IMG/VR virus record: IMGVR_UViG_3300017700_000723
Span: 466-64,465 of that record
DNA from: a virus
Taxonomy: Duplodnaviria; Caudoviricetes
Strand: one strand, 5' to 3'
DNA length: 64,000 nt
Shown here: one piece after another, positions 5,222 through 51,656 of the stretch
How positions within the stretch are numbered: position 1 is the first letter of the stretch
How the letters are laid out: every line of letters begins with the position of its first letter
Notes under the pieces: generated by a model
What the model was told of the DNA's origin: nothing
Databases searched by the model: none
Seen by the model: only the letters and a program-made list of their open reading frames with translations
Translations under genes and position numbers: made by a program

Positions 5222-6187
5222 CTAGGTGATGACACAGATGACTGGGCGCTTGTCCGACGTCGGGTCCGTCCCGATGGCGACGGCGCGCAGCACTTCAACG
5301 AACATTCCCGAGATGCGGGCGCTCGGTGCGCCATTGTGTAGGACCTCGGCCGCCTCCTTCGTGACGCGGGCACTCGGGGCGCCATCGTGCAGGACCTCGG
5401 CCGCCTCCTTCGTGACGCGAGCGACCGAGGCTGGCGCTGTGCCTGTCTCCGTGAACGCGAGCGTGACGGCCTGCCAGAACTTGCGCGTGCTGGCTGCTGG
5501 CTCCTGAGCTACCGCGGCCTGGGTCGAGGTGACGGTCTTGTACTGCGCGAACAGGTTGCCGATCGCGTACTGCCGCGTCGACGCTACGTTCGCGACACCG
5601 GTGTAGCCAGTGTTGGCGGAGAGCACGGCTGGCTGGGCGTCACCGTCCTGGGCGCTGTCGACGAAGATCGACAGAAGCAGCGTGTTCGCGTCGCCCGTGG
5701 TCAGGTTGACCGAGGGCTGGTCCAGAGCGGTGTCGCTGTCGCTGTTGTAGTAACTGACAGCCGCTGTGGCGTCGAGCTCGCCGTCGAACGGCGCCGTGTA
5801 GTTCCCTATGCCAGCGACCGCGAAGCCGATGCAGCTGATCTGGTTCGCGAAGCCCGCCGACATGGTCGTGGACCAGGCTAGGTTCGTCACCTGCGCAAAG
5901 GCCGGCGCTACGAACATCTGCAGGTGCCAGTTCGTGATCGGGAACGAGCCGCCGACGTTGTACTCGATCAGCTCGTCGAACACCTCCGTGAAGGTCAGCC
6001 CCGTGGCGGTCACGCCGCTGATGCGGGTTACGTTCGTGGCCGTGTCCGTGCGCGCCGTGGCGAAGATCAGGACGACGGTCTGGCCCTCGCCGTTCGTGCT
6101 GATCGTGCCGGCCTGGCTGTTTGATATGCCAGCGCCAGAGAAGTTCTGGCCCCCGCCGGAGTGGATACTGTTGATCGAGACGGTCAT
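5222..6187 (-). CDS. tail fibre/receptor-binding-associated protein
   Basis: 321 aa, Thr/Ala-rich beta-type sequence at end of tail module. Confidence 0.6.
   Translation of the reverse strand: MTVSINSIHSGGGQNFSGAGISNSQAGTISTNGEGQTVVLIFATARTDTATNVTRISGVTATGLTFTEVFDELIEYNVGGSFPITNWHLQMFVAPAFAQVTNLAWSTTMSAGFANQISCIGFAVAGIGNYTAPFDGELDATAAVSYYNSDSDTALDQPSVNLTTGDANTLLLSIFVDSAQDGDAQPAVLSANTGYTGVANVASTRQYAIGNLFAQYKTVTSTQAAVAQEPAASTRKFWQAVTLAFTETGTAPASVARVTKEAAEVLHDGAPSARVTKEAAEVLHNGAPSARISGMFVEVLRAVAIGTDPTSDKRPVICVIT
5315..5416. repeat. 2 x 51-nt in-frame tandem repeat (ARVTKEAAEVLH[D/N]GAPS)
   Basis: direct repeat at 5315-5365 and 5366-5416. Confidence 0.9.
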
Positions 6188-7224: not shown

Positions 7225-7935
7225 TTAACGAGTGCCGAGGAAGTCGAGTGAGACGTCGGCCAGCGTCGCGTCCTGTGGGCTCGGAGCCTCGATGGTGAAG
7301 ATGTCGTTCACGGCGAAGGTCACCGCACTCGCGAAGGTCGGCGCGCCGACCGTTCCCGCCGCCGACCAGACAATCGTCCCGATCGACGAGCCGTTCTTCT
7401 TGAGGGTGAACGTGGCTGTGCCTGTGGCGGCGACGCGGGCGTTGAAGATCGAGCCGGTCAGCGATATCGGCAGCGTGAACTCGCGCGTGGCGTTGAACCG
7501 GAGCATGACCGCGCCGGCCGTCGGCAGACCCGGCAGGAAGATGTGCAGGTCGTGTGGCAGGAAGGCAGAGCCAATGGTGCTGATCTGCTCCAGGCCGTCC
7601 GTGGTGCCGTCGGTGTAGAAGAACAGCTGCGAGCCGACCGGGAGCAGGATCGAGGTCGCGCCCCTCACGATGTTGATGGCGTTGGCCCCGCTGTTCTGGA
7701 TGTACGTCCAGCGCTTGATGGCAGGCAGCGTGAGGGTCTTGCTCACACCGACGGGGGTCAGCTTGAACTTGAACGCGCTGCGGTACTGGACGTCCGTGAG
7801 CGACACGCTGTTGGTGCAGTCCACCGTGAGGAGCTCGGTGATAGCCGCGTCCATCGCGCCGATGCCGTCGTTGTGGGTGACCTCAGGGTTCGCCTGGCCG
7901 CCCGTCTGCAGTGGCGCGTTAAGATTAGTTGACAT
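7225..7935 (-). CDS. tail-associated protein (DUF2793-like N-terminus)
   Basis: begins LNAPLQTGGQANPEVTHND; follows the central tail protein. Confidence 0.55.
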   Translation of the reverse strand: MSTNLNAPLQTGGQANPEVTHNDGIGAMDAAITELLTVDCTNSVSLTDVQYRSAFKFKLTPVGVSKTLTLPAIKRWTYIQNSGANAINIVRGATSILLPVGSQLFFYTDGTTDGLEQISTIGSAFLPHDLHIFLPGLPTAGAVMLRFNATREFTLPISLTGSIFNARVAATGTATFTLKKNGSSIGTIVWSAAGTVGAPTFASAVTFAVNDIFTIEAPSPQDATLADVSLDFLGTR

Positions 7936-10900
7936 CGACAGTCTCCTCGCCTGGGAAGCCCCGACCGAGCTCGCCCATCTGGTACACCCTGAACTTGATC
8001 GAGGTCACCGGCGGCGTGAAGCCGTCGGTGGTCTGGTTCGCCGAGCTGTAGTTCCACGTGGGCGAAGTCAGGCCGGTGACGGTCCGCACGACGGTGGAGC
8101 CGGACAGGATTTCCAGCTCGTACGCCTCGCTTGTCTCGGACAGGATCGTTGGGTTTGTAACATATTCCGTATTCAAGCGATCCCTTCGAACCCAGCTCAG
8201 GTCCACGGAACTGCTGGCGCCAGGAGCTGCCGCCAGCGAACACGGGCTGAAGGGATATAGCTCGTAGCCCTTGATAGTGTTCGCCTGCTCGACCGGGTCG
8301 CGGGTGCTCGGCACGCCGATCGCGCGGTAGGTGAACACGTCGCCCACCTTGGCGACGTCCGCGGCCTGCGGCCTGAGGGCGCTGTTGAAGCTGGCCGCTC
8401 CGCTCGCCACGAGCAGCACCACGTCGGACGGGTTGTGCGTGACGAAGGCGTCCGTGCCCCTCTGCGCGCGGATAAGGCCGGTGACGCGCACCACCTTATC
8501 GCTGAGCCAGGTAACATCCCGGAAGTAGACGTACTCCCAGTGACCAGGTCGACCGATGGCCAGGCAGTTGACGCCCGCCACGAAGTCGTAGTAGCTGGCG
8601 CTCGCGACGTCTGATACCGCGATGGTCTTGCTCACGATGTCTATGCTGTCCTCGACGGTCCGGTAGTAGGGGGCGACAGCCGTCGGCATGGACGCGAACG
8701 TGCCCCACTTCACGTCCTGGCTCGTCGTGAAGACGTTGATGTACTCGTCGAGCTCCTTGTAGCTCAGCAGCGCGGACTGGAAGCCGGTGCGGTAGGCCCG
8801 CACGCCGTCCATGAGGCTGATTGCCCCAGCTATGGTGCCCTGCGCCGGGTCGAGGACGGGAGTGTCCAACACCACCGGGATCGCGTCGCTGCTGGTGGCC
8901 ACGTCCTGCGGCAGCGACGACCCGACGTCGCTACCGCTCACGGGGATGTCGGTGCGGAAGAGGTAGTTCGCCGCCGTGTAGCTCGTGGAGAAGTCGCCGT
9001 TGAAGGTGCACTCGTCCAGCTTGACGGTATAGGCGTACGGCGCGATCGTGACGGTGACGATGTCGGTCGGCTCCAGGAGCAGGAACGACTGCGGCAGGCG
9101 AAAGTTCTGCATAACCACGTTGTCGCCAGCGCGGATCGCAGTCTTGGAGGCGCGAGCGTACGCCTCGCTCGTGCTCATCACGAACGGGAGGTCGTAGACC
9201 ACAGTGTTGACGCTGCTCACCAGCTCGTCACCGCGGTTGTCCGGGGTGTAGACCTGTGAGAGCGGCGAGTACGTCTGCTCGAGCGCGTAGTAGTTGATCT
9301 GGGCAGCGAGCTGCCCCATGCCCTCCGGCAGGATCATGGTTACGAGCGCGTCGTCCGGAGTGAGCTGGTTCTCCGAGACGTGCGCCAGGTCGGCTAGCGT
9401 GATGTCTGCGACTGGGACAGGGGGCTCCTCTCCGCCGGTAAGGGTGGCGGCCCCGAACGATACGTTGGTCGCCGTCTCCGTGGTGACGATGGAGTTGCCC
9501 GCCGTACCTGACAGGTTGGACCTGATGTCGATCTTGCGGAACCCGTACAGCGTGGCGCTGTCGATGTTCTGCTCCACGCTCACCTTGGTGTGCGCGGTGG
9601 TGCCGGCGAAGAAGCCGTCGACGCTGTCCGCCAGGCCGATGTCTCCCTTGATCGCGGCGAACAGGTTCTTCTCGGTCTTCTCTACCGCATCCAACGTCGC
9701 GACGTTCGTGTCAACCCCGATCTTCACGTCGAACGGCGCCGAGGGCGTGTTCTTGAAGCGGTAGACGAACGTGCCGATGGTGACGGTCTGCGCGTCGGTC
9801 GGCAGGCCGGTGAAGGTGAGCTGGCCCGTGGCGACCAGGGGATTGTTCGAGTTGCGCTCGAACTTCAGGGTGCCGCCCGAGTTGAAGTACGTGAAGTCGT
9901 ACACCGCGGCGATGTCGTTGAACAGCTGCGACACGGAGTACGGCTTCGTGATGACGACACCCGGCACCTGGTCCGTGAGCTTGGTGTCGATGGTGACGTT
10001 GGACAGGCTGAAGCCCGCGGCCGTCGCGAGGTAGCCCAGCGTGGCGCTCAGGGAGCCGATCGTGCCGTTGATGCCGCTCCACACCTGCTTGAAGCGCATG
10101 CCCTGGCCCGCGAAGGTCTGCAGCGGCAGCTCGTCGGCGCCGTAGGTGCCGTGGAAGAAGAGCACTCCGGCCTGGCTGTCCCAGATGTGCTCGCCAGAGT
10201 TGGTAAGGCCAGCGCCGATAGCGGTCACGGTGCCGTCCTTGATGTTGAACATGCCATTGCCGGCCATGACGGCCGTGCCCGCGCTCAGCTCCGAGTTGAC
10301 GAGCGTGTTCTTCTCCCAAGCGTCTGAGACCATGTTGGCCGGCTTGTGATCGTACAGGGGACCTCCCACCCTCGGGAAGATGCCTCGCCAGCCAGGAGCC
10401 TCGCTGAAGTCCGGAGAGCCGTAGTCCACGGACAGCCGGGTGTATGTGGTTATGCCGGTGTCGCCATTGTCGTCCCTGATGCAGATGTGGCCCTCGGCGT
10501 CAACGAAGGCCGAGACAAGGCTCAGCGTCGGGTGGACGCCGTCGTAGATGCGCTGCCGACCGAGTATCTTGGCGACGCCCGCGGTGATGTTGACGTAGAC
10601 GATCTCGACGGTGGGCGCGCCGCCGCCGAGGAAAACCCACCTCGTGGTGATGAGGAAGGCGACGTCCTGGTAGGACAGGTGCTCGTCGACCGCCCTCTCC
10701 CAAATCTTAAACGGGCAGATAGCCGGGAACTGGCCCGGGGACTGATAGAAGGACTCAAACGGCACGGAGGTCGGCATCGTGCCGTCCTTGCCGACCTTCA
10801 TGGCCATGGCGAAGCCGCCCTGTATGGCAGCGAACAGCACGGGCTGTATGTCGTTGGCGCTCACCACGTAGTCGACGGCGCCGTGGTGGAGGCTCGAGCA

Positions 10901-11998
10901 CTTCACCATCGGCTCGTCCTCGTCCGGGGGGCCGCCGTCGGCCGACGCCGGGCCGATGGCCCCCTCCAGCGAGTTCGAGATGACGACGCCGGTCTCCGAC
11001 AGGGAGCACGCCATGCGGTTGGACCTGGCGGTGTAGATGATACCGTTGAGCCTGTCCCACGTGCAGAAGTTATCGGTCGCGCCGATGGTGTCGCCGCCGT
11101 CCGCGATGACGTACTGCGAGAGCTGTGTGGCCGTGTCCATGTCGTAGAAGTTCACGGTCGAAGGGGCCGAGCTCAGGCGGGGATTGACAGTGCAGATCAG
11201 GCGCCGGTCGAAGTCCGACATCTTCACCTGGCCGAAGAACGGTATGGGGTACGACCCAGCGATCATCCGGAAGTTGTGGAGCTCCGAGGTCGTGATGGAG
11301 CCGTCGGCCAGCTCCACCGACACGGCCGGGAATACCGGAGCGGGCGTCACCCTCGCCAGGGTGCCCTGGGCGACGATGAGGTCAGAGATGACCATGTACA
11401 TGAGGCCGCGGTACGACGGAGCCAGCGAGCCCTTGTCGGCCAGTATCTCCGGGTCCGGTATCTGGTCCTCGTTCCCGTCGTGGAAGCGGAATACCAGCTT
11501 GGACTCGTTGTAGTTCGGGAAAACCATCGTCCCGTCGCCGACGGCGCCGCTCTGCACCACCCAGACGCCGGACGCGTTCCGAGCTCCAGCGGGGATGTAG
11601 CGCTCGTCCACCGAGCTGAAGACCACGGGCGAGCCGGTGCCGTTGTCCCACACCAACACGCCGTCGATCCAGATGCGCCTGACGAGCGGGGCGGAGTCGT
11701 TCGGGTTCAGACGGTAGCCGAGGGCGACGGCGAACGACTGCCTCACGTTCCAGGCGATGGCCGTGCTCACGGCCGAGCCGTCGGCGTGCGGGATGTACGA
11801 CGGCACCTCCTCCGTCCGGCGCTGCGGGCCAGCCCAGAGCACCGCGCCGTTCAGTCGGCGGAAGCCGGCGGACAGCGGTATGGGTGAGCCCCACACAGAA
11901 CCGCGGTAGTCCACCCCCTTCGGGCCAGACTGCGGGTTCGATATCATCACGCCGTAGCCAGGCATGGAATACCAGCCTTGCCCGTAAGAGATGGCCAT
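7925..11998 (-). CDS. central tail/host-specificity protein (phage-tail_3, GTA megatron-like)
   Basis: 1357 aa; N-terminal YAVALG...RRIWIDG and PSYRGLMYMV, C-terminal LSWVRRDR motifs; follows DUF2163. Confidence 0.8.
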   Translation of the reverse strand: MAISYGQGWYSMPGYGVMISNPQSGPKGVDYRGSVWGSPIPLSAGFRRLNGAVLWAGPQRRTEEVPSYIPHADGSAVSTAIAWNVRQSFAVALGYRLNPNDSAPLVRRIWIDGVLVWDNGTGSPVVFSSVDERYIPAGARNASGVWVVQSGAVGDGTMVFPNYNESKLVFRFHDGNEDQIPDPEILADKGSLAPSYRGLMYMVISDLIVAQGTLARVTPAPVFPAVSVELADGSITTSELHNFRMIAGSYPIPFFGQVKMSDFDRRLICTVNPRLSSAPSTVNFYDMDTATQLSQYVIADGGDTIGATDNFCTWDRLNGIIYTARSNRMACSLSETGVVISNSLEGAIGPASADGGPPDEDEPMVKCSSLHHGAVDYVVSANDIQPVLFAAIQGGFAMAMKVGKDGTMPTSVPFESFYQSPGQFPAICPFKIWERAVDEHLSYQDVAFLITTRWVFLGGGAPTVEIVYVNITAGVAKILGRQRIYDGVHPTLSLVSAFVDAEGHICIRDDNGDTGITTYTRLSVDYGSPDFSEAPGWRGIFPRVGGPLYDHKPANMVSDAWEKNTLVNSELSAGTAVMAGNGMFNIKDGTVTAIGAGLTNSGEHIWDSQAGVLFFHGTYGADELPLQTFAGQGMRFKQVWSGINGTIGSLSATLGYLATAAGFSLSNVTIDTKLTDQVPGVVITKPYSVSQLFNDIAAVYDFTYFNSGGTLKFERNSNNPLVATGQLTFTGLPTDAQTVTIGTFVYRFKNTPSAPFDVKIGVDTNVATLDAVEKTEKNLFAAIKGDIGLADSVDGFFAGTTAHTKVSVEQNIDSATLYGFRKIDIRSNLSGTAGNSIVTTETATNVSFGAATLTGGEEPPVPVADITLADLAHVSENQLTPDDALVTMILPEGMGQLAAQINYYALEQTYSPLSQVYTPDNRGDELVSSVNTVVYDLPFVMSTSEAYARASKTAIRAGDNVVMQNFRLPQSFLLLEPTDIVTVTIAPYAYTVKLDECTFNGDFSTSYTAANYLFRTDIPVSGSDVGSSLPQDVATSSDAIPVVLDTPVLDPAQGTIAGAISLMDGVRAYRTGFQSALLSYKELDEYINVFTTSQDVKWGTFASMPTAVAPYYRTVEDSIDIVSKTIAVSDVASASYYDFVAGVNCLAIGRPGHWEYVYFRDVTWLSDKVVRVTGLIRAQRGTDAFVTHNPSDVVLLVASGAASFNSALRPQAADVAKVGDVFTYRAIGVPSTRDPVEQANTIKGYELYPFSPCSLAAAPGASSSVDLSWVRRDRLNTEYVTNPTILSETSEAYELEILSGSTVVRTVTGLTSPTWNYSSANQTTDGFTPPVTSIKFRVYQMGELGRGFPGEETVDVN

Positions 11999-31446: not shown

Positions 31447-33741
31447 TCACGCCAACGGATCGTCCTGGCTGTCAGCCTCGCCGACCACGTCGTCGTTGAA
31501 GTCTTCGACCGCCGATAGCGGGGCGGACGTCAGCTGCTTCATGTACCGCTCGATCCTGGCCTTCGGCTCCATCTGCGAGTAGAGCTCGCCGCGCCGGGTC
31601 GCCCAGAGCCTCTTGCTCGTCGCCGTCCCCGGGACGCGGTGCGCGCCGAGGTTCGTCGCCTTGGCCTCGTCGCGGAGGAAGGTCGGGATCAGCTTGTGCA
31701 GGCCGTTCATCCGCTGGAGCCGCTGCGGCAGGTGCTGCTCGACGTCGGACACGCAGACCAGGTCCATGTTGAACGGCGGGTTGCGGTCCTCGAGGTTCTC
31801 CGCGAGCCAGCGCTCCAGCTCGGGCAGGCCCTCGCGGCGCATCAGGTCGTGGGCCTTGGTGTGCGGCGCGCGGCCGAGGCCCCACATCAGGTCGACGGGC
31901 CGGACCAGGAGCTGGGCCAGGACGGCGGCGGGGCCGTCGCCGTCGAGGAAGCGCCACAGCCTGTCCCAGTACGAGGTCGGAGTGCCGAGGCCCCGGGCGA
32001 GCGTCCGGAAGACCATGTAGCGCCTGTCGCTGTTCTCGAGCCTCAGGGCGTCCAGGTGGTTCGTGAAGGCCATGAACGCGGCCTTGTTCGCCGCCGTGAG
32101 CAGGTCCTTGCCCTTCAGCTCGACGGTGATCGTGTCCTGGGTGATGAGCGCCTTCATCCTGTTGGCGAGCGTGCGCTTGTCGTCGCCCATCAGCTCCTCT
32201 ACGACGGCGAGCCTGGTCTTCAGCACCCAGCTGTTGAACCGGTTGCCGACGTCCTCGGTGCGCAGGAAGGTCGTGTTCCTCTCGTCTACCAGCTTCGACA
32301 TCAGCACGCCGAGCCACGACTTGCCGCAGCCCTGCTCGCCCTGCATGAGGAACATGAAGTTCGGCTTGAGCCCCTCGTTCTGCAGGACCCACGCCATCCA
32401 GTCGAGCGCGGCGGCGCGCTCCTCGTCGTCGGGCAGCAGCCGGAGCATGTGCTCTTCGAACGGCCCCGTGTCGCCGGCCTTGGGCTCGATCGCCGGCTTG
32501 ACCCACGTGTTGTAGAGAGGGCCCGCGAACTCCGGCTTGCCCGGGAGGAACGCGAGCGTCTCGAACTTGGGGAGCATGCCGTTGCTCGACAGTATCTGGC
32601 CCGCGATCTTGCCCTTCTCGCCGAGGTAGCCGAACAGGCTGTCGAAGCTCTTCTCGTTGACGATGAACTTGTCGGAGCGGCGCATGAATATCTGCTGCTG
32701 CGCGATCCACACCCAGTTGTCGCGGAAGCTGACGTCCTCGAGGCTACTCCCAGAAGGCCTTGTCTGTCCGACGTTCTTGGCTGCGTCGCTCAGGACTGCC
32801 AAAGGGCGCGCGCCCCTGCTCGCGAACTCCTCTATGCTCGGCGGCTCGCCCGCCCTGCCCCATCCGCTCGGCCCGCCGAAGTGGGCCTCGGCGCTGTCCC
32901 CTCCGGGCGCGACGACCCCGGCGTAGGCCCACGCGTTCTTGGCGAAGGTGTCGCACTCCTCGTCCGTCCACGGCGGGTCGCAGCGCGGCGAGTAGTACTC
33001 CTTGAGCAGCTCGGCGATCTTGTCCTGGCTCACGCCCTTCTCGCGGAGCTCGCAGGCCACGCGGAACGTGAGGTTGTTGCCGCCCTCCCCCGCGATCGCG
33101 GGCTTGCTGTCGACCTCGAGCCACCTGACGGCCCAGGACACGGCCGCCTCGGTGTCGAGCTCCGCGACCTCGATGTCCGAGCGCTGCACGCGCTCCTCCT
33201 TGCGCTCGCCGGCCTTGTCGGCGATCCACTGCGGCAGGGGCTTGACCTTGGTCGTCGTCGACCAGGAGTACTCGCCCTGATCGGTCGTCGATCCCGGGGC
33301 CAGGACGTAGCCTCCCATCCCGCCCGCTCCACGGGTGTCGACGCCGTCTGCGAGCCGGTCGACCGTGTTGGCGACCCGGCCCTTGAAGTACAGGTGGAAG
33401 CCGCCGCTCGGCGTCCTCGCCGTCAGCGTCTCGGGGCAGGCGCCGTGGTCCAGCTCCAGCTCCTGCCAGCGCTTCGAGCCCTGCTTGTCCGGCTTGCCCT
33501 TGACCTTGGCCTTCTTGTTGTCGAGGTCGACGACGGCGAGCCCCGACTGCCCGACCGCGACGCCGATGTTGGCGTCAGGCGTCCTCTGCCACCAGCGTGC
33601 GACGACGGCTGGGTCGTCGCTGGCCTCGCTGCCCCACTTCACCAGTGGCCTGTCCTTCGTCCCCGGCTGGATCGGGAACACCTTCCAGCCCCAGCCGGCG
33701 TACTTCGCCGCGAGCTGGGCCTTCGTTGGGTTGTCGGTCAT
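31447..33741 (-). CDS. bifunctional Prim-Pol primase with C-terminal SF3/D5-like helicase
   Basis: ANIGVAVG...VVDLD...TPSGGFHLYF Prim-Pol motifs; Walker A GEQGCGKS. Confidence 0.92.
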   Translation of the reverse strand: MTDNPTKAQLAAKYAGWGWKVFPIQPGTKDRPLVKWGSEASDDPAVVARWWQRTPDANIGVAVGQSGLAVVDLDNKKAKVKGKPDKQGSKRWQELELDHGACPETLTARTPSGGFHLYFKGRVANTVDRLADGVDTRGAGGMGGYVLAPGSTTDQGEYSWSTTTKVKPLPQWIADKAGERKEERVQRSDIEVAELDTEAAVSWAVRWLEVDSKPAIAGEGGNNLTFRVACELREKGVSQDKIAELLKEYYSPRCDPPWTDEECDTFAKNAWAYAGVVAPGGDSAEAHFGGPSGWGRAGEPPSIEEFASRGARPLAVLSDAAKNVGQTRPSGSSLEDVSFRDNWVWIAQQQIFMRRSDKFIVNEKSFDSLFGYLGEKGKIAGQILSSNGMLPKFETLAFLPGKPEFAGPLYNTWVKPAIEPKAGDTGPFEEHMLRLLPDDEERAAALDWMAWVLQNEGLKPNFMFLMQGEQGCGKSWLGVLMSKLVDERNTTFLRTEDVGNRFNSWVLKTRLAVVEELMGDDKRTLANRMKALITQDTITVELKGKDLLTAANKAAFMAFTNHLDALRLENSDRRYMVFRTLARGLGTPTSYWDRLWRFLDGDGPAAVLAQLLVRPVDLMWGLGRAPHTKAHDLMRREGLPELERWLAENLEDRNPPFNMDLVCVSDVEQHLPQRLQRMNGLHKLIPTFLRDEAKATNLGAHRVPGTATSKRLWATRRGELYSQMEPKARIERYMKQLTSAPLSAVEDFNDDVVGEADSQDDPLA

Positions 33742-40586: not shown

Positions 40587-41960
40587 ATGGCCAAGCACGC
40601 TCGTCTCTCCGCCTCCGGCTCGAAGCAGTGGATCAACTGTCCCGGCAGCATTCGCCGCGAGGAGGACTACCCTGAGGGTACGTCGTCCATCTTCGCGCAG
40701 CAGGGGACTGGGGCTCACGCCCTGTCCGACTGGTGCCTCACGACCGGCAAGGACGCCGAGGACTACGTCGGCGGTCGCGTGTGGGTGCACGAGGAGAAGG
40801 AGACGAAGCTCGTCCCGCCCTCCGTCAAGGAGCAGGGCAAGCTCGAGGAGCGCCTCGCACGGGAGGGCTACACCCGCTTCGACGTCGTCGACGGCGAGGG
40901 CAACGGCGAGCTGACCGAGATCAAGTGCTGGGCCGTGATGATGTTCGTCAACTGCTGCCGCCAGGAGTGGCAGAAGTCGGCCGACATGTCCGCCGTGTTC
41001 GGCGAGGAGCCCCTGCCGTTCGAGACCGAGCGCTACATGGACGGCAGCTGGCTGCACCCGCTCATGGGCGGCACGGCCGACTGGCACATGCTCGCCATGG
41101 ACAACTGGATCAAGCTGAAGGACCTCAAGTATGGGGCGGGCGTGTCCGTCGAGGTCGAGGACAACACGCAGCAGATGATCTACGCCGTGCTGATCCTGCA
41201 CGAGCACCCCGAGGCCGACGGCGTGGACATGGAGATCGTCCAGCCGCGTCTCGCCCACAAGGACGGCCCGATCCGTCCGGCACGCTACACGAGGCAGCAG
41301 CTGCTCGACTTCCAGGCCGAGCTCGTCGACCTGGCCAACGAGACGCAGAAGCACAACGCGCCGATCAACGCGGGCGACTGGTGCCTCTGGTGCCGCGCCA
41401 AGGTCGGCTGCAAGGAGTTCCGGGAGAGGACGCAGGACCTGGCGCGCATGGACTTCGACGACCCGCCGGAGATCATACAGGCGCCGACCGACCTCGAGCA
41501 GCTGGCCAAGCTCGCCGCGTGGATGCCGATGCTCGACGCGCTGAACAAGGCCGTCGACGGTGCGATCGGCCGGGAGCTCCACCAGGGACGCCGGGTCGGC
41601 GGCTTCAAGCTCGTGCGCGGCAGGACCTACAGGCGCTACGGACACGCCGAGGACCACCCCGAAGGTCTCTGGTCGCAGGGTGATCCCATCGAGGAGGCCG
41701 AGATCGTCGGACTCCTGAAGGAGGAGGCGCTCCTGACCGAGGACATGATGTACCATCCGCCGCAGCCGGCCAAGCTGCTCACCCTGCCGCAGATGGAGAA
41801 GCTGGGCAAGGACGCCAAGGTGGTGCTGAAGAAGATCACGTACAAGCCGGAGGGGCCGCTGGTTGTAGCCCCAGAGAGCGACCCGCGCGAGGAGGTCAAG
41901 ATCGACCCGGCCGCGGCCTTCCCGAGCGACGATGACGACGCGATGGAGATACCAGGATGA
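40587..41960 (+). CDS. Cas4-like exonuclease, DUF2800 family
   Basis: HARLSASGSKQWINCPGS; GTAD...DLKYGAG; GDWCLWCRAKVGC. Confidence 0.9.
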   Translation: MAKHARLSASGSKQWINCPGSIRREEDYPEGTSSIFAQQGTGAHALSDWCLTTGKDAEDYVGGRVWVHEEKETKLVPPSVKEQGKLEERLAREGYTRFDVVDGEGNGELTEIKCWAVMMFVNCCRQEWQKSADMSAVFGEEPLPFETERYMDGSWLHPLMGGTADWHMLAMDNWIKLKDLKYGAGVSVEVEDNTQQMIYAVLILHEHPEADGVDMEIVQPRLAHKDGPIRPARYTRQQLLDFQAELVDLANETQKHNAPINAGDWCLWCRAKVGCKEFRERTQDLARMDFDDPPEIIQAPTDLEQLAKLAAWMPMLDALNKAVDGAIGRELHQGRRVGGFKLVRGRTYRRYGHAEDHPEGLWSQGDPIEEAEIVGLLKEEALLTEDMMYHPPQPAKLLTLPQMEKLGKDAKVVLKKITYKPEGPLVVAPESDPREEVKIDPAAAFPSDDDDAMEIPG

Positions 41961-42651: not shown

Positions 42652-43242
42652 GTGGCTGAACGTAAGGCAGTGTTTACCCCGCCGTTCCGGGTGTCGTTCC
42701 CGAACGTGTATCGCCCCTCGAGCTACCAGGGCGGCGAGCCGAAGTACTCCCTCGTCATGTTGTTCTACCCGGCCGACTTCAACGAGAAGCACAAGCTCGC
42801 TTGGAAGGACGTCGGCCGTATCGCCAACGAGGCGGCGATGGAGAAGTTCAAGAAGCCCCTCAAGGAGCTCCCGGACAACTTCCGCAAGCCCTTCCGCAAG
42901 GGCGAGGAGAAGGCGCACCTCGACGGCTACGGCCCCGGCTGCATCTTCTTCAGTGCGTCCTCCAAGCAGGCCCCTGGCGTGATCGACCGCAACAAGGCGG
43001 TCGTCCTCGAGCAGGACCTGTACCCAGGCTGCTGGGCCCGTGCGTCGATCAGCGCCTTCGCCTACGAGAACAAGGGCAAGGGCGTCGCGTTCGGCCTGCA
43101 CAACATCCAGAAGCTGGGCGAGGGCGAGAACTTCAGCGGGCGCCTCGCGGCCGAGGAGGACTTCGGCGACAACGTCGACGACGTCTTCCCGGATGCCGGT
43201 GGAGGCAGTGCGCCGATGGACGACGACGACCCGATGGCGTGA
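42652..43242 (+). CDS. single-stranded DNA-binding protein, DUF2815 (Enc34-like)
   Basis: RVSFPNVY..., YPGCWARAS, GVAFGLHNIQKLGEGE, acidic C-tail. Confidence 0.9.
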   Translation: MAERKAVFTPPFRVSFPNVYRPSSYQGGEPKYSLVMLFYPADFNEKHKLAWKDVGRIANEAAMEKFKKPLKELPDNFRKPFRKGEEKAHLDGYGPGCIFFSASSKQAPGVIDRNKAVVLEQDLYPGCWARASISAFAYENKGKGVAFGLHNIQKLGEGENFSGRLAAEEDFGDNVDDVFPDAGGGSAPMDDDDPMA

Positions 43243-43440: not shown

Positions 43441-43938
43441 ATGCTGCGCTGCCACGAGGGAAAATGCTCGCTGTGCCGTCGCCACACTTGCATCTGCGAA
43501 TGCGAGGAGCTGCGCGAGATGAGCTGCGCCGAGAAGGCGGAGCACCACGAGCTCTGCAACGATGGCCACTGGTTCAAGGTCGTGCCGTTCGAGTTTCGCA
43601 ACGGGATCAACGGCGGCACGTCCTACTCGATCGTCAAGTGCAAGACCATGGCGACGTCCAAGGACAAGGACAACGCCGAGGAGATCGTCCGTCGGCTGAA
43701 CCTGGCGCGTAAGGCCGAGCGCGACAACAACAGGCTCGTCGCGGAGAACAGGCGGCTCCAGTCGACCTTCCGAGGACGGCACTCCAGCGAGGATGTGCGA
43801 CAGGCCGTCATCGACGAGTTCGCTGTTCTCCCGCATTGTCGCTGGTCATCGCATCGCAAGCAGATCGTCGACTTCGGCAGGGCGGTGCTACGCCGCCTCA
43901 AGGTGGCCGACGATCAATCCATCGGCGGTGAAAGCTGA
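43441..43938 (+). CDS. hypothetical protein with Cys/His-rich N-terminus
   Basis: GGGAG RBS; multiple Cys suggesting Zn binding. Confidence 0.6.
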   Translation: MLRCHEGKCSLCRRHTCICECEELREMSCAEKAEHHELCNDGHWFKVVPFEFRNGINGGTSYSIVKCKTMATSKDKDNAEEIVRRLNLARKAERDNNRLVAENRRLQSTFRGRHSSEDVRQAVIDEFAVLPHCRWSSHRKQIVDFGRAVLRRLKVADDQSIGGES

Positions 43939-44300
43939 TGGAGGACAACGACTTCATCTTCCGCAACCACCCACGAAGCAAGGAGACCACCATGGATACC
44001 GTAGGCAACAAGACCGAAGACAACCTGATCCCGGCGAGCGGGACCGAGATGCGCGTGGCCGACGTCGCGGCCTTCTGCGTCATCGGGCCGTCAGTCAGCA
44101 ACAGCTTCGGCCGCACCTGGAAGAAGACCCAGGCCGAGGCCGCCAAGCACGCGCGGAAGCTCATCAACCAGTCCGTCGACGGCAAGGGCAACCCGACGAC
44201 GCGCAAGCTGTTCGTCGTCCAGGTCGTCGAGGTCATCGAGGTCCCGGGTCCGACGCTCATCAGCCGCAAGATCGAGGAGGACGACACCTCGGGGGAGTAG
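43938..44300 (+). CDS. hypothetical protein
   Basis: TGATG overlap. Confidence 0.6.
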   Translation: MEDNDFIFRNHPRSKETTMDTVGNKTEDNLIPASGTEMRVADVAAFCVIGPSVSNSFGRTWKKTQAEAAKHARKLINQSVDGKGNPTTRKLFVVQVVEVIEVPGPTLISRKIEEDDTSGE

Positions 44301-44833
44301 TCTCGCTCGACATCGAGACCTACGCCTCCGGTGGCAGTGTCACTGGAGGTGGCCTCGATTACGGGCGCGGACCCACTGATTGGGCTGCTGGCACTCTGAT
44401 CTGCGATCACGAGGGCAACAAGCGGTTCATCTCTCCACCGGCTAGGATCAGCTGGCCAACGCTCAAGCGTCCCGAGAAGGTGGACGGCAAGGTGGAGCTC
44501 CACTTCAAGGTGGATAAGACCGACCTCGTCTCTGATAAGTGGCACGGCCTCAATCTCGACTACGCGGAGATCGAGAAGCGGTGCCTCGCCCACATGTCGG
44601 AGGACGCCAGGCGGTCGCTCATCGAGGCCTCGTGGCCGGCGAGGGAGTCCTTCATCTTCAACACGAGCGCGAGGAGGATGGGCAAGACCGTCGGCTACGG
44701 CGTCTCCGATCACTACGACGACCTCCGTCGATACTTCAAGGCCTCCAACCTTCCAAGGTGGAGGGACCTCGATGCCCATATCGAGGACAGCCTCAAGAAG
44801 AAGCGCGACCCACTAGACGAGACCAAGGCCTGA
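44297..44833 (+). pseudogene. ORF with PolA-like motif fragments, start codon uncertain
   Basis: SLDIETY, LDYAEIEKRCLAHMSED, RRMGKTVGYG in a ~178-codon frame. Confidence 0.45.
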
Positions 44834-44869
44834 ACGCTGGTATACGCTGCCCCTTTGGGCGGCGTATTC

Positions 44870-45265
44870 ACATCTCGCGACTGTTCGATGCTCGAACATA
44901 GCAGTTCAGGACCCGGGGGCAGTACCCGGCGCCTCCACCACGGATGCACGCTCGTCGGTGCTCATACGGCAGTTAGTTCGGCTGCTGTGCTAAGAGCAGG
45001 TCCTCCGACTGGACCCACTCGCCGACGGAGATGGCCCGAGCTAGCAGGGCACATTGGCGTGCATCCTTGATGGGGGCGAAACAGGATCGACTGGCTGTGA
45101 CAGGGAGAGAGTAGGTCGCCGGAGTGGCTCGCGTCATAGGGCCATGAACTAGATGCCAACGACAACACCCCGGCTCAGGACTTCCGCGTCGCGGCCTGAA
45201 TGAGCTAAGACGATGGGCTACTAGGGACCCTGCCTCGTGTCAGAATTGGGTCCCGCTCATTCCAA
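44870..45265 (+). ncRNA. ssrA: circularly permuted two-piece tmRNA (alphaproteobacterial type)
   Basis: T arm CCGGG-GGCAGTA-CCCGG and CGCCTCCACCA (ends 44940); IVS; GGGGGCGAAACAGGATCGAC at 45072 giving G3:U70; tag ANDNTPAQDFRVAA at 45155-45199; outer ends approximate. Confidence 0.92.
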
Positions 45266-45277
45266 CCGGAGGGCCGC

Positions 45278-45394
45278 ATGGCCGAGACCTGCATCCAACT
45301 CGCAATCGCGTTCACGATCGCCTGCGCTGGCGTTTCCATGGTGCTCTACACCCTGTCGCATCTCGTGGCCGCTGCCGTCAAGGTCACGTCCTGA
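45278..45394 (+). CDS. small membrane protein (38 aa)
   Basis: GGAGG RBS; single TM helix. Confidence 0.5.
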   Translation: MAETCIQLAIAFTIACAGVSMVLYTLSHLVAAAVKVTS

Positions 45395-45426
45395 GCGATC
45401 GACTTTAGACCGTCAGGACCGATGAG

Positions 45427-45450
45427 GGGGAGGCCAGCGATGGTCTCCCC
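45427..45450 (+). terminator. hairpin terminator downstream of tmRNA unit
   Basis: GGGGAGGCCA-GCGA-TGGTCTCCCC followed by TTAGTCTTT. Confidence 0.55.
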
Positions 45451-45489
45451 TTAGTCTTTCGTTAGCACCCCGGCCGGTACTGTCCGGCC

Positions 45490-46220: not shown

Positions 46221-46478
46221 ATGACGACGGCGGACACGGCCCCGAACGCGAACGTGAAGGCGGTCCTCAAGGCCTACATCGAGAGGATCGAGAGCGTCAA
46301 CGAGGATATCAAGACCCTCAATGACGAAAAGCGGGACATCTTCGCCGAGGCGAAGGGCAACGGCTTCGACGTCAAGGTGATGAAGCGCGTCATCCAGCTC
46401 CGCCGCCAGGACGCCAACGAGCGGGCCGAGAGCGACACGATCCTCGATACCTACCTGCGAGCATTGGACATGGTGTGA
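46221..46478 (+). CDS. gapR: GapR/DUF2312 nucleoid-associated protein homolog
   Basis: LKAYIERIE.....K....DI.AEAKGNGFDVKVMKRVIQLR.....ER.E....LD.Y..AL signature. Confidence 0.9.
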   Translation: MTTADTAPNANVKAVLKAYIERIESVNEDIKTLNDEKRDIFAEAKGNGFDVKVMKRVIQLRRQDANERAESDTILDTYLRALDMV

Positions 46479-48793
46479 CGTCCTCGGCCCAACGTACAGT
46501 CCTCCACGTCGACAAGGCCACGATCGACTTCGAGAGCCGCTCGCTGCGGGACATCGGGGTCGGCGCCTTCGTGTACTCCCGCTGCCCCACCACCCAGGTC
46601 TACTGCCTCGCCTACAAGATCAACGACGGCCCGACTAAGCTGTGGCACCGCGGCCACCCCAAGGTCGGCATCAAGCAGTCCCCGTTCCCGCAAGACCTCG
46701 CGGACCACATCCTGAAGGGCGGGCTCGTCGAGGCGCACAACGCCGGCTTCGAGTACAACATGTGGAACGCCTGCTTCCGCAGCGAGTTCCCGGAGTTCCC
46801 CATACTCGGCCTCGAGCAGCTGCGGTGCTCCGCCGCCAAGGCCGCTCAGTTCGCCCTGCCGCGCTCCCTCGAGGGAGCATGCGACGCCCTACGCACGCCG
46901 ATCCGCAAGAACATGGACGGCAAGAAGGTGATGCTCCGGGTCTCGAAGCTGCCGCCGAAGTACAAGGCCAAGGACATCGCCTCGCTCCTGGCGCAGGTCG
47001 AGCTCGGCACCCTGGACGTCAACGACATCCCGTGGAACGAGGACCCGAACGACCTCCGCACGACGTGGGCCTACTGCTGCGACGACGTCGACGCCGAGCA
47101 CAGCCTGTCCGGGTCTCTGCGCGAGATGCGCCCCCGCGAGCTCGAGATGTGGCAGATGGACCAGCGGATGAACCTCCGCGGCATCACCTGCGACGTCGCC
47201 GGGGCCAGGGTGGCGATCGACATGGCGACGGAGGAGGCTGACCGCCTGAACGGCCGGCTCAGGGAGATCACGGGCGGCGCGGTGCCGAAGGGCTCGTCCC
47301 GCATCAAGCTGAGGAGGTGGGCGAACGACAACGACTTCGCCATCCAGAACACGCAGGCGGACCACATCAAGGAGATGCTGGTCAACAACAAGGAGCGGCT
47401 GCTCTCGACCGAGACCGGGAAGCTGGTCTACGAGGCGATGGAGATATGCGTCGACGTCAACCAGACCTCGACGACGAAGTACGCCCAGATGCTCGACATG
47501 GTCTGGACCGACGACCGCATCCGCGACCTCATGATGTACTACGGCGCCGCCAGGACGGGGCGGTGGGCCGGCAAGGGCGTCCAGCCGCACAACTTCCTCC
47601 GCGGCTTCTCGAAGGACATGCAGTTCGCGTGGGACCAGATACTGAAGCAGGACCCGGTCCGGCTGCAGATACTGTTCGGCTCGACGATGAAGGCGCTGGC
47701 CAAGGCGACGCGCGGAGCGCTGATCGCCGCCCCCGGCAAGGACCTGATGGTGGCGGACTACGCTGCGATCGAGGCGCGCGTCCTGCCGTGGCTGGCGGAC
47801 GATCAGGACGCCCTGGACATCTTCCGGAGCGGTCAGGACGTCTACCTCAAGATGGCCGGCGACATCTACAGGAACGACCCGGAGCAGCAGGAGTTCATCT
47901 CCTACATCGACCGCCTGGCGCGGGACCCGACGAACAAGGCGCTCATCGAGGAGATCAAGACGAAGTGGCCGGTGCTCCGCCAGATGGGCAAGAAGGCGAT
48001 CCTGGGCCTCGGCTTCCAGATGGGCGCGGAGAAGTTCGACGACGAGTGCGCGGCGGAGGACCCGCCGATCAACATGCCGCGCTCCTTCTTCTACAAGGTG
48101 GTGAAGACATACCGCGAGGTCTCGTTCCCCAAGATCGCCAGCTTCTGGGACGACCTCAACGAGGCCGCCGTGTGGGCTATCCAGAACAAGGGCAAGAAGG
48201 TGCAGTGCCGGATGGTGGCCTACAAGTTCGTGGGCGAGTTCCTGCACTGCCAGCTGCCATCCGGCCGCCTGCTGTCCTACCACTTCCCGACCGTCTCCAT
48301 ATCGCGGAACGTGACCTGGTCGGCGACGTCCAAGCAGGGCAAGGAGGCGACGATCCGCGTCCGGGTCAAGCCGAACGAGCCCATGCCGTCGGTCTACGAG
48401 CGGGCGAAGATCAGCGCCAGGATGGCGGAGAAGACGATCGACAACCCGAGCGAGTACGAGATACAGGACAAGCCGTCGATCTTCTTCACGGGCGTCGACC
48501 AGAAGACGAAGCAGTACGTCCGCATGGTGACCTACGGCGGATCGCTGGCTGAGAACGTGACCCAGGCGACGGCCCGGGACCTCATGGGCGAGGCGATGCT
48601 GCGCTGCGACGCCTCGGGCCTGTACGAGATGCTCCTGTCGGTCCACGACGAACTCATCGCCGAGTGCGACGAAGACAAGGGCGACGTGCGGGAGTTCGAG
48701 CAGATGATGGCTGCGCTACCTGATTGGGTGTCGAACGACAATCTGGTCCCGGTCGCGGCCGAGGGCTGGCGGGGCAAGAGGTATCGCAAGTGA
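46475..48793 (+). CDS. polA: DNA polymerase, family A with 3'-5' exonuclease
   Basis: DFES exo I, AHNAGFE, RTGRW, motif A DYAAIEARVL, motif B RQMGKKAILGLGF, motif C VHDEL. Confidence 0.95.
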   Translation: MTSSAQRTVLHVDKATIDFESRSLRDIGVGAFVYSRCPTTQVYCLAYKINDGPTKLWHRGHPKVGIKQSPFPQDLADHILKGGLVEAHNAGFEYNMWNACFRSEFPEFPILGLEQLRCSAAKAAQFALPRSLEGACDALRTPIRKNMDGKKVMLRVSKLPPKYKAKDIASLLAQVELGTLDVNDIPWNEDPNDLRTTWAYCCDDVDAEHSLSGSLREMRPRELEMWQMDQRMNLRGITCDVAGARVAIDMATEEADRLNGRLREITGGAVPKGSSRIKLRRWANDNDFAIQNTQADHIKEMLVNNKERLLSTETGKLVYEAMEICVDVNQTSTTKYAQMLDMVWTDDRIRDLMMYYGAARTGRWAGKGVQPHNFLRGFSKDMQFAWDQILKQDPVRLQILFGSTMKALAKATRGALIAAPGKDLMVADYAAIEARVLPWLADDQDALDIFRSGQDVYLKMAGDIYRNDPEQQEFISYIDRLARDPTNKALIEEIKTKWPVLRQMGKKAILGLGFQMGAEKFDDECAAEDPPINMPRSFFYKVVKTYREVSFPKIASFWDDLNEAAVWAIQNKGKKVQCRMVAYKFVGEFLHCQLPSGRLLSYHFPTVSISRNVTWSATSKQGKEATIRVRVKPNEPMPSVYERAKISARMAEKTIDNPSEYEIQDKPSIFFTGVDQKTKQYVRMVTYGGSLAENVTQATARDLMGEAMLRCDASGLYEMLLSVHDELIAECDEDKGDVREFEQMMAALPDWVSNDNLVPVAAEGWRGKRYRK

Positions 48794-49430: not shown

Positions 49431-50191
49431 CTGAGGAGCGCATCGGCTCCACGGACCCGGCGACCAACCCCTGGCTCGAGACCTACACCGGTCGGAAGTT
49501 CTGGGCGGCGGACCCGCGGATGGAGGACGTCACGATCTTCGACATCGCCCACTCGCTGGGCTACAAGTGTCGGTACAATGGGCATACGGCGAAGTTCTAC
49601 AGCGTCGCCGAGCACTGCGTGACGCTGGCCCTGAAGGCCAGACAGGAGGGCCTCCCCGTCGCCACGCAGTTCCAGATGCTCATGCACGACGGCTCCGAGA
49701 CCTACCTGCCGGACGTGCCGCGGCCGATTAAGCACCTCTTCCCCGAGCTCGTCGCGATGGAGAAGCTCAACGACCGGGTGATCCGGGACTGGGCCGGGCT
49801 CTCGCACGACGTGCCGCCGATCGTCAAGGAGTGGGACGCGAGGATCATCACGGACGAGCGGCGCCAGGTCCTGCTGCCGTCTGGCCACGCCTGGTCCTCG
49901 GACAGCCTCGAGCCGCTCGGTGTCCAGCTGCACGGCTACGAGCCCTACGAGGCTCAGATGCGGTTCCTCCAGGTCTACCAGCACATCTCCGCGGAGCACC
50001 ACGGCCGCCCGATGCTGTTCGCCTATGACCCCGGGGAGTTCGCGGCGCACAACAGGGACCTCACGACCTACCAGCCGCCCGACATCCGGATGCTGGACCT
50101 CCGTGGCGGCTGCGCCATGTACGCGAACGAGAACGGCTTCCTGCGCTTCTGGCATGGCGACTTTGAGCTCCTCATCAACTCCCGCGCCTGA
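49427..50191 (+). CDS. HD-domain deoxynucleotide phosphohydrolase (YfbR-like)
   Basis: DIAHSL...CRYNGH...YSVAEH...LMHDGSETYL.D. Confidence 0.85.
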   Translation: MTEERIGSTDPATNPWLETYTGRKFWAADPRMEDVTIFDIAHSLGYKCRYNGHTAKFYSVAEHCVTLALKARQEGLPVATQFQMLMHDGSETYLPDVPRPIKHLFPELVAMEKLNDRVIRDWAGLSHDVPPIVKEWDARIITDERRQVLLPSGHAWSSDSLEPLGVQLHGYEPYEAQMRFLQVYQHISAEHHGRPMLFAYDPGEFAAHNRDLTTYQPPDIRMLDLRGGCAMYANENGFLRFWHGDFELLINSRA

Positions 50192-51656
50192 GCTCTGGAA
50201 GCACCAGAGCGACGAGATAGAGGACCACTGGTTCGACAGGGCCAGGGCCCTGCTCTGGAGCATGCGGACCGGCAAGACGCGCACGATCATCAAGACGGCG
50301 GACCGCCTTCACAGACACGGAGACCTCCTTGGCGTACTCATCCTCGCCCCCAACGGCGTCCACACGAACTGGATCACACGCGAGCTCCCGAAGTGGGCGC
50401 CTCGGGACGGCGTTGCTATGTCATGGGACAGCAACAAGAGCCGCGAGAGGAGAGCTCCTTTCCTCTCCTCCGTCACCCGACTACTCGAACCTCGCGGCCT
50501 CGGAGATGGAATACGATGGCTTTCCGTCAATGACGAGGCGCTTCTCAACCCACGATGCCAAGAGCTGATCCAACAGTTCAGGCTGCTGTGCGAGAACCGC
50601 ATCCTCGCCGTCGCCGACGAGAGCACCATGTTCAGGCGCGCGTCGGCCGAGAGGACCAGGATCGCCAGGGGCCTGTGCCACAAGCTGTGGTGGCGACGCA
50701 TCCTCGAGGGCACGGCCCTGCTCAACTCCCCGCTGCACGCCTTCTCGCAGTACGAGCTGCTGCAGAAGTGCGCGCTCGGCTACGAGAACTGGGGCGACTT
50801 CAAGGACCGCTACGCCGTCTACGTGCGCGAGCGGGAGAGGTACACGAACCGCTCCTACCTGAAGCTGGCACGCTACCAGAACCTCGACGAGCTGCGCGAG
50901 CGCATGTCCGCCTGGTCCTCCGTCGTGATGCGCGAGGACTGCAACGACATGCCCGAGCTGCTGCGCTACCCGGTCGAGGTGGCGATGAGCGAGAAGCAGA
51001 TCGTGGCCTACAAGCAGATGGCCAAGGAGATGATGCTCGACCTGGACGACGGCACTGACGACTTCGTCGAGGCTCTGAACGGCGGGTCGAAGATGATTAA
51101 GCTGCACCAGATCGTGGGCGGCTTCGTCAACGACAGGAACGGCGAGGTGCGCTCCATCGACGACAACCCGCCGATCCTGGACGCGATGGAGCGCGAGGTG
51201 ACCGGCCACGGCGGCAAGTCGATCATCTGGTGCCGGTTCAAGGAGGACATCCGTCGCGTCGTCGCCAGGCTGGAGGGACTTGGTCGCGGCGTCGTACAGT
51301 ACCACGGCGACGTCGGGAAGTCGCAGCGCGAGGAGGCGATCGACCGCTTCCAGCGAGACCCGCTCATAACGGACTTCGTGGGCCAGCCGCAGGCAGGCGC
51401 CCGAGGGCTCGATCTTTCCGCGGCGGACCTCGTGCTGTGGTACTCGGTCGTCCCGGACGCGATCATCACGGAGCAGGGCAACGAGCGTGGGACCCAGATG
51501 GCCGGCAAGGCGGTCAACATCGCGACCCTCACGACCAGCAACACAGTCCACGACCTCATCGTCATGTCCAACGAGGACAAGGTGGCGACGGCGGACCGGG
51601 TCGGAGGCAGGGGCCTGCGGGACCTCCTGCGGGCTCAGGTCCAGGCGCTCAGTTGA
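50154..51656 (+). CDS. SNF2-like superfamily 2 helicase
   Basis: LWKHQ, MRTGKT, VADES, LEGT, helicase-C ARGLDL; start approximate. Confidence 0.88.
   Translation: MATLSSSSTPAPELWKHQSDEIEDHWFDRARALLWSMRTGKTRTIIKTADRLHRHGDLLGVLILAPNGVHTNWITRELPKWAPRDGVAMSWDSNKSRERRAPFLSSVTRLLEPRGLGDGIRWLSVNDEALLNPRCQELIQQFRLLCENRILAVADESTMFRRASAERTRIARGLCHKLWWRRILEGTALLNSPLHAFSQYELLQKCALGYENWGDFKDRYAVYVRERERYTNRSYLKLARYQNLDELRERMSAWSSVVMREDCNDMPELLRYPVEVAMSEKQIVAYKQMAKEMMLDLDDGTDDFVEALNGGSKMIKLHQIVGGFVNDRNGEVRSIDDNPPILDAMEREVTGHGGKSIIWCRFKEDIRRVVARLEGLGRGVVQYHGDVGKSQREEAIDRFQRDPLITDFVGQPQAGARGLDLSAADLVLWYSVVPDAIITEQGNERGTQMAGKAVNIATLTTSNTVHDLIVMSNEDKVATADRVGGRGLRDLLRAQVQALS

Follow-up and report, generated by a model that had tools for sequence, protein, structure and literature searches.

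A permuted, alpha-type tmRNA gene in the DNA replication module of a 64-kb siphophage

The locus and its parts

The record studied here is a complete virus genome of 64,465 bp with direct terminal repeats, rated 100% complete; the window, that is, the whole stretch of DNA that we analyzed, comprises its bases 466–64465 (64 kb). Judged by its gene content, the phage is a YuA/RDJL-like siphophage. Its genes include a GTA-like tail protein (7925–11998) and a Prim-Pol (31447–33741) on the − strand, as well as a Cas4-like DUF2800 exonuclease (40587–41960), a Gp2.5-like SSB (42652–43242), a DNA polymerase A (PolA, 46475–48793) and a helicase (49920–51656). The nearest isolates are Roseobacter phage RDJL3 (39% identity for the exonuclease, 45% for PolA) and Rhodobacter phage RcRudolph (30% and 37%, respectively).

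Within the + strand DNA replication module lies a permuted tmRNA gene. ARAGORN called it at 44845–45290 on the + strand, with the tag ANDNTPAQDFRVAA*, as the sole tRNA-like gene in the window; the combination of tRNA array and tmRNA that forms the translation cassette of large phages was not found there. Replication genes are its neighbors, and no defense, anti-defense or RNA-repair gene is adjacent. Neither a sigma-70-like promoter near the gene nor a riboswitch attached to it was found. Searches of the complete genome detected no smpB gene and no tyrosine or serine recombinase (no PF00589 or PF00239 match at E ≤ 1), which bears out a preliminary description of the DNA as a 64-kb siphovirus without smpB or integrase.

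Several smaller features flank the gene. Upstream, a 346-codon open reading frame (ORF; 43793–44833) matched no Pfam or PHROG entry, and the low complexity of its N-terminal half, with many Arg, Gln, Asp and Pro residues, suggests that the real gene is shorter or lies in another frame. Between the stop of this ORF and the tmRNA, a GC-rich hairpin (GCTGCCC CTTT GGGCGGC, 44842–44866) has no T-run and, instead of being a terminator, could play a part in RNA processing or stability; by inspection of the alignment introduced below (A1), the copies from RcRudolph and contig L120 also appear to have a GC-rich hairpin in the 5′ part of the acceptor-piece region. Directly after the tmRNA, an ORF of 38 codons (45278–45394) encodes a strongly hydrophobic product with one predicted membrane helix. 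A GGAGG motif lies 5 nt upstream of its ATG, and the 3′ limit of the ARAGORN call overlaps its start. A terminator-like hairpin follows downstream at 45425–45452.

Two Rfam models recognized the tmRNA gene: RF04321 (tmRNA_permuted) with 91.5 bits (threshold 47, E 2.5e-16) over the whole model, and RF01849 (alpha_tmRNA) with 82.7 bits (threshold 50, E 6.7e-21) over model positions 40–243 of 355. Their agreement with ARAGORN confirmed the alpha-type permuted tmRNA proposed in the preliminary description, the coordinates of which proved correct base by base. The CCA end (44940) precedes G1 (45072), which precedes the tag frame (45155–45199). The 3′ limit given by ARAGORN, 45290, is probably too far downstream; the final conserved element stops at 45254.

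Rfam alignments and covariation counts assign to the acceptor piece a minimum extent of 44877–44940 on the + strand, a lower limit on the 5′ side. It begins with the 5′ strand of helix P2c (44877–44882), identified by covariation, and continues with a local hairpin (44883–44888/44892–44897) present in six copies with differing stem sequences, the covariation-supported P2a strands (44901–44905 and 44907–44909, with U44906 bulged) and a GAC linker. The T arm (44913–44929) consists of the stem CCGGG (44913–44917) paired with CCCGG (44925–44929) and the loop GGCAGTA, and is followed by the 3′ acceptor strand CGCCTCC (44930–44936), discriminator A44937 and an encoded CCA (44938–44940). In the intervening segment (44941–45071), a closing stem (44942–44951 with 45057–45066) is followed by a 5-nt leader, UUGAU, before G1.

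The 5′ part of the coding piece (45072–45154), delimited by Rfam alignments, covariation and conservation, starts with the 5′ acceptor strand GGGGGCG (45072–45078, G3 at 45074). It then comprises a D-loop analogue (45079–45090), the opposite P2a strands (45091–45093 and 45094–45098), a junction (45099–45113), the P2c 3′ strand (45114–45119) and a pseudoknot-1 region (45120–45154). A candidate 5-bp pseudoknot-1 stem read from the sequence (45125–45129 with 45140–45144) is possible in the window; its columns are inconsistent with the relatives in the alignment. The tag frame called by ARAGORN (45155–45199) opens with the resume codon GCC (45155–45157), encodes ANDNTPAQDFRVAA and ends on TGA (45197–45199). 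The 3′ pseudoknot region (45200–45254) contains a candidate pairing of GGGC (45215–45218) with GCCU (45232–45235), recognized by inspection, and a 3′ hairpin of GGGACCC (45224–45230) and GGGUCCC (45248–45254) with CAGAA in its loop, which was found in six copies with covarying stems.

The acceptor stem (44930–44936 with 45078–45072) pairs at 7/7 positions, including U44934:G45074, the G3:U70 pair. This stem had been read correctly at the outset, and an unconstrained cofold also yields it. The alanine identity elements (7-bp stem, G3:U70, discriminator A and CCA) are invariant in six copies. Equally accurate was the earlier reading of a tag with an ANDN start and an AA end: the frame closes with GCG GCC TGA, that is, Ala-Ala-stop, and the resume codon is of the GCN type. 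From G1 to the resume codon the distance is 83 nt, versus 85–86 nt in hosts. A protein-coding alternative was rejected, with no ORF of at least 80 codons spanning the locus; a 120-codon ORF (44539–44901) extends just 57 nt past the 5′ edge of the ARAGORN call. Given the 63% GC content of the DNA, the short ORFs at the locus look like chance occurrences.

Homologous phage copies and covarying helices

Two cultured phages that infect Rhodobacter capsulatus, a genetically tractable species, carry homologous permuted tmRNA genes that had been overlooked. The copy in RcRudolph (OP009285, L002:5942–6356) scored 94.8 bits with RF01849 at full length. In GenBank, this locus (L002:5930–6265) is annotated as the CDS RCRUDOLPH_61, a ‘hypothetical protein’ of 111 codons that terminates exactly on the tmRNA tag stop codon. 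RCRUDOLPH_61 is a gene-caller artefact created by upstream extension of the tag frame, a lesson for the annotation of such loci. In RcSimone-Hastad (MW677525), the homolog (L201:3001–3414) lies in an unannotated gap. The papers describing the two phages make no mention of a tmRNA; RcSimone-Hastad was reported as a virulent, YuA-like phage from which no lysogens were obtained (PMC8601537). Further homologs were detected in IMG/VR contig L120, in metagenome contigs L215 and L233 and in a 65-kb IMG/VR phage (L256). No tRNA genes were found in RcRudolph or RcSimone-Hastad; L233 (76.8 kb) carries one (6038–6111, − strand) ~190 nt downstream of its tmRNA.

The gene order exonuclease, SSB, tmRNA, PolA is common to the window, RcRudolph, RcSimone-Hastad and L233, with PolA proteins 37–40% identical to that of the window. 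L120 has exonuclease, SSB and tmRNA in the same order, PolA falling beyond the examined stretch. A closer microsynteny with cluster RcG, involving its HIRAN gene and the tmRNA, was discarded; the ORF upstream in the window is an unclear homolog (E 0.003, 28 residues), and we claim synteny with this cluster at the module level only.

The structure model comprises five helices (acceptor stem, T stem, P2a, P2c and the closing stem of the intervening segment), three of which join the two pieces. It was evaluated on alignment A1, which contains six sequences: the window, RcRudolph, RcSimone-Hastad, L120, L215 and L233. Standard pairs occupied 98.0% of the 204 cells across these copies, versus 37–45% when partners were slid by 1–3 columns. 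Pairs changed on both sides numbered 14 in the five-helix model versus 0–3 in the slid controls, and none of 500 shuffles matched the values of the model.

Pairing between the two pieces in helix 2, as proposed in the preliminary description, is thus supported by covariation, while the register given there is not. P2a pairs 44907–44909 with 45093–45091 and 44901–44905 with 45098–45094; P2c, a second inter-piece helix, pairs 44877–44882 with 45119–45114. Together these helices are 92–100% paired, with seven pairs changed on both sides. P2c is compensated at five of its six positions, and the proximal three P2a pairs covary over 51 distinct viral and bacterial contexts. The pairs suggested earlier (CTGGCTGTG with CATAGCAG, and ACAG with CTGT) formed in 36 of 60 cells in five phage homologs and are ruled out, the homologous, covariation-backed register lying elsewhere. 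We chose covariation for helix 2 because an unconstrained cofold of both pieces, although recovering the acceptor stem and T arm, selected a nonhomologous partner.

The closing stem was scored as 44942–44949 with 45066–45059; these first eight pairs are formed in six copies, five of them with changes on both sides. The intervening segment as a whole folds at −64.7 kcal/mol (z −4.78), a value equaled by none of 200 shuffles. It is 131 nt long in the window, compared to 61–99 nt in the five aligned relatives, 84 nt in L256 and 23–26 nt in Rhodobacterales hosts. No riboswitch or other RNA was found inside this long segment, the best match being a sub-threshold RAGATH-25 (18.5 bits versus 49).

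Conservation, origin and distribution

Comparison of the window to its relatives in the alignment revealed a mosaic of identities. The first four tag codons are 100% identical, and values are 89–93% from G1 to P2a, 84–97% in the T arm/acceptor region and 67–92% over the last tag codons and stop. Much lower identities were obtained for the tag middle (24–50%), the junction with P2c (33–43%) and the intervening segment (21–28%). Length changes in the tags of the relatives (14–15 codons) are in frame and preserve the reading frame. RcRudolph and RcSimone-Hastad, with tmRNAs 94% identical and genomes at 82% average nucleotide identity (ANI; PMC9753621), share with L120 the tag ANDNVRMDAQALAA. The tag of L215 is ANDNVRQDEVMAIAA and that of L233 is ANDNNSFAQDLRIAA, which has the ending AQD(F/L)R(V/I)AA in common with the window. 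These phage tags, including ANDNTPAQDFRVAA, span 14–15 residues and are acidic or Gln-containing in the middle, compared to the 12-residue tags of Rhodobacterales hosts, ANDNRAPVALAA or ANDNRAPMAMAA. A search of IMG/VR and JGI metagenome contigs returned no second occurrence of the tag pattern of the window. Because the helices are compensated and conservation is mosaic (cores 84–100%, intervening segment 21–28%), we conclude that selection has acted for a working tmRNA. The pattern of sequence conservation is what one would expect if selection maintained the charging of a tmRNA, its binding of SmpB, resumption and the degradation tag.

In a tree of the mature regions, the window branched first within a single group of all six copies (93/83; 95% of bootstrap trees), set apart (96/87) from the ssrA genes of Rhodobacterales and Hyphomicrobiales. 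With such short sequences and a biased bacterial sample, this topology is suggestive only. When the gene was compared by BLAST with 401 Rhodobacterales genomes, matches were confined to the universally conserved T arm/acceptor core (32–50 nt, 84–97% identity). In most of these genomes, the core and host ssrA are 94–97% identical. A captured host ssrA of identical sequence, raised beforehand as a possible explanation of the locus, is contradicted by the lack of any match beyond these 32–50 nt in the 401 genomes, and an attP remnant by the completeness of the gene in a genome without integrase or recombinase. Sequence comparison thus argues that the tmRNA is not a recent host copy.

Single-protein queries (the upstream 346-aa ORF and the Cas4-like exonuclease) yielded no confirmed relatives, whereas a profile of SSB homologs retrieved 31 related loci from IMG/VR, 27 of them extending 3.5 kb or more downstream. 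A tmRNA was present in two of these 27 contigs, both high-GC. None was found in the RDJL-like group of 53% GC among the SSB-profile loci or in the first 50 kb of RDJL3. As most relatives lack it, the gene is dispensable, and this distribution marks it as an accessory gene of a high-GC subset that was either frequently lost or transferred among related phages.

Proposed function and relation to other tmRNAs

We consider it likely that the locus encodes a working alpha-type two-piece tmRNA that adds ribosome-rescue capacity, and that this accessory gene is inherited within a high-GC YuA/RDJL-like branch. The gene would share a single precursor transcript with the + strand replication genes, and there the structured intervening segment would close on itself, so that the acceptor strands meet. 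Maturation would remove this segment: cleavage on the 5′ side of G45072 is predicted to be by host RNase P, and the encoded CCA (ending at 44940) would be freed by 3′ processing in the host. The acceptor stem and the covariation-derived helices 2a and 2c would hold the two pieces together. Host AlaRS may then charge the molecule via G3:U70, and host SmpB and EF-Tu would bring it to ribosomes stalled on broken mRNAs; as the phage has no smpB, tagging would require host factors. Translation would resume at GCC 45155 and append ANDNTPAQDFRVAA, a tag that agrees with host degradation tags in its ANDN start and its hydrophobic-Ala-Ala end. More ribosome rescue while the mRNA pool is degraded in the infected cell would be the likely benefit.

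Reliance on host SmpB is equally a feature of a decoy, a phage RNA that would inhibit trans-translation in the host by titrating its SmpB, AlaRS or EF-Tu; such a role has been proposed for the tRNA-like-domain-only molecule of mycobacteriophage DS6A. Competition for host SmpB is obligatory for a phage with no SmpB of its own, the tRNA-like core is the best-conserved part of the gene, a DS6A-like molecule strongly inhibits tmRNA (PMC4131195), and the authors of the work on Sphingobium phage Lacusarx suggested that phage tmRNA counteracts host tagging. A decoy could, however, do with the tRNA-like domain alone, and the copies analyzed here, although deeply diverged, have all kept the resume codon, the ANDN codons, Ala-Ala-stop, the frame and the 3′ pseudoknot hairpin; we regard inhibition as very unlikely. 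It also seems distinctly unlikely that the main value lies in a diverged tag or in timing, with tagged proteins being re-routed or with the tmRNA countering host nucleases that cut mRNA, tRNA or host tmRNA. The longer phage tags with their acidic or Gln middles and the uniqueness of the window pattern within IMG/VR and JGI metagenomes would fit such a role, but the parts expected to be read by adaptors and proteases, the ANDN start and the hydrophobic-Ala-Ala end, are conserved while the middle merely drifts, and counter-defense is at odds with the absence of adjacent defense, anti-defense and RNA-repair genes.

Prophages often integrate into ssrA and can carry its fragments (PMC9004378, PMC4383910), and ~49 of the 119 core-bearing IMG/VR loci listed have no complete gene. 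On this basis, the tmRNA might be a nonfunctional passenger, either a captured host ssrA or an attP remnant of an integrating ancestor. This explanation is extremely improbable and already largely refuted by the complete gene in a genome devoid of integrase and recombinase, the reported virulence of RcSimone-Hastad with no lysogens obtained (PMC8601537), the lack of a similar gene outside the core in any sampled host, and the compensatory changes and mosaic conservation that show ongoing selection. A more far-reaching proposal is that a phage-adapted tmRNA lineage, inherited and exchanged among high-GC YuA/RDJL-like siphophages, serves as a takeover or counter-defense device and not as a spare host copy. 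We hold this to be unlikely. Such a device would rely on an enlarged precursor and on a tag of its own, with an acidic middle and an ending of the AQD[F/L]R[V/I]AA type, to keep ribosomes running or redirect tagged proteins, acting when host nucleases or phage host shut-off destroy mRNA, tRNA or host tmRNA.

The working two-piece tmRNA that we favor has a close known counterpart in Alphaproteobacteria (Caulobacter crescentus ssrA; RF01849, RF04321). Shared features are the permuted order, the 7-bp acceptor stem with G3:U70, a T arm with a GGCRGUA loop, an inter-piece helix 2, 83–86 nt from G1 to the resume codon, an ANDN...AA tag and a 3′ hairpin with a CAGAA loop, the last being the conserved 3′ motif of RF01849, as seen in RcRudolph. 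In contrast to the bacterial genes, the copy in the window resides in a virulent-type phage without smpB, has an intervening segment of 131 rather than 23–26 nt and a different tag middle, and is placed by the tree outside the bacterial ssrA groups that were sampled. RcRudolph, as aligned to the alpha model, lacks the consensus 7-bp helix 2b, which is not evident in the window either; phage copies instead have the local hairpin and the 6-bp helix 2c in this region. RcRudolph and RcSimone-Hastad (cluster RcG) agree with the window in module, helices and precursor layout and differ from it in their tag, ANDNVRMDAQALAA, in an intervening segment of 97–98 nt and in having 21–28% identity outside the cores. 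One-piece mycobacteriophage tmRNAs (Bxz1, Catera and others) and DS6A are likewise phage-borne and dependent on host SmpB (PMC4131195). Those of Bxz1 and Catera have the standard, nonpermuted form, unlike the window copy, and DS6A RNA consists of the tRNA-like domain only, without tag frame, and is thought to be inhibitory (PMC4131195), whereas the tag frame of the window is conserved.

Phage tmRNAs with two pieces are established as a kind. In a 2022 census of 18,146 phage genomes, 402 had tmRNA genes, and 53 of the 133 unique forms were two-piece (PMC9004378). The novelty claim of the preliminary description, which named one-piece phage tmRNAs as known and called a full permuted copy unusual, was therefore overstated; it is the setting that is less usual. 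Published two-piece examples comprise Methylophilales phage Melnitz, Pelagibacter phages HTVC008M and Mosig, Caulobacter phages CcrSC, CcrBL9, CcrSwift and CcrKarma and Roseobacter phage DSS3_MAL1 (PMC9004378 and its Table S1). That table lists permuted copies for Caulobacter (219–322 kb), Pelagibacter, Roseobacter (DSS3_MAL1, 150 kb) and cyanobacterial phages, with no Rhodobacter or Yuavirus entry. Other tmRNA-bearing phages of Alphaproteobacteria are Lacusarx (130 kb, 24 tRNAs) and Caulobacter phage Shash (223 kb). Like the window, the published two-piece phages have a complete alpha-type permuted ssrA without integrase or smpB, and its function is hypothesized there too. Unlike them (140–320 kb), the window is 64 kb, without tRNA, has the gene in its DNA replication module and belongs to a YuA/RDJL-like lineage missing from that census (PMC9004378). 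More broadly, the copies described here occur in siphophages of 61–77 kb that are tRNA-free except for the one tRNA beside the L233 copy, compared to 140–320-kb phages with tRNA arrays. New in this work are the lineage, the mid-sized genomes without tRNA genes (L233 excepted) and the explicit covariation-supported structure.

In the literature that we found, including PMC9004378 and the Lacusarx work, phage tmRNA function is addressed by hypotheses only. With the tmRNA as the sole translation-related gene of a mid-sized genome, its effect is unconfounded by tRNA arrays, and the lineage provides a clean test case for phage tmRNA function. The covariation data supply a testable two-piece secondary structure with predicted processing sites.

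An alpha-type tmRNA core was detected in at least 119 IMG/VR contigs; among the 119 matches listed, the gene was complete in 70 and incomplete or absent in about 49. BLAST of isolated phages with a 41-nt core returned four records, a number limited by short-query statistics and not an estimate of prevalence. As a clade marker, the 24-mer GGGGGCGAAACAGGATCGACTGGC was rejected. Representative genomes covering 185,579 species lack it, and it occurs in 37 viral or metagenome contigs (L203–L238), yet it is not clade-specific because about 30 low-GC marine contigs also contain it; most contigs with this 24-mer are marine with 30–42% GC, and about half have no ARAGORN tmRNA call. A 22-mer from the 5′ core of alpha-type tmRNA was present on short contigs of metagenome-assembled genomes (L127, L129, L149, L167 and L182) labeled as Dehalococcoidia, Legionellales, Verrucomicrobiales, Flavobacteriales and Opitutia. 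These are probably mis-binned phage or alphaproteobacterial contigs; the copies on L127 and L167 were sufficiently complete for the tree, and both grouped among viral copies.

Additional permuted genes and tags came to light in other viruses. Erythrobacter phage vB_EliS-L02 (OL955261, 150 kb) contains an unannotated permuted tmRNA (L202:1943–2351) with the tag VNDNDVVVARDEVRLAA, which closes an array of 15 tRNA genes. Among IMG/VR contigs (L015, L016, L024, L030, L071, L073, L082, L083 and others), eleven have a permuted tmRNA with an unusually long tag of 29 residues, ANDNALSNVTFVDFSAPVTAVNEDFALAA, and three more encode the tag AKKSTTFASILPVKVERVSLVQEALAASA, which does not begin with ANDN.
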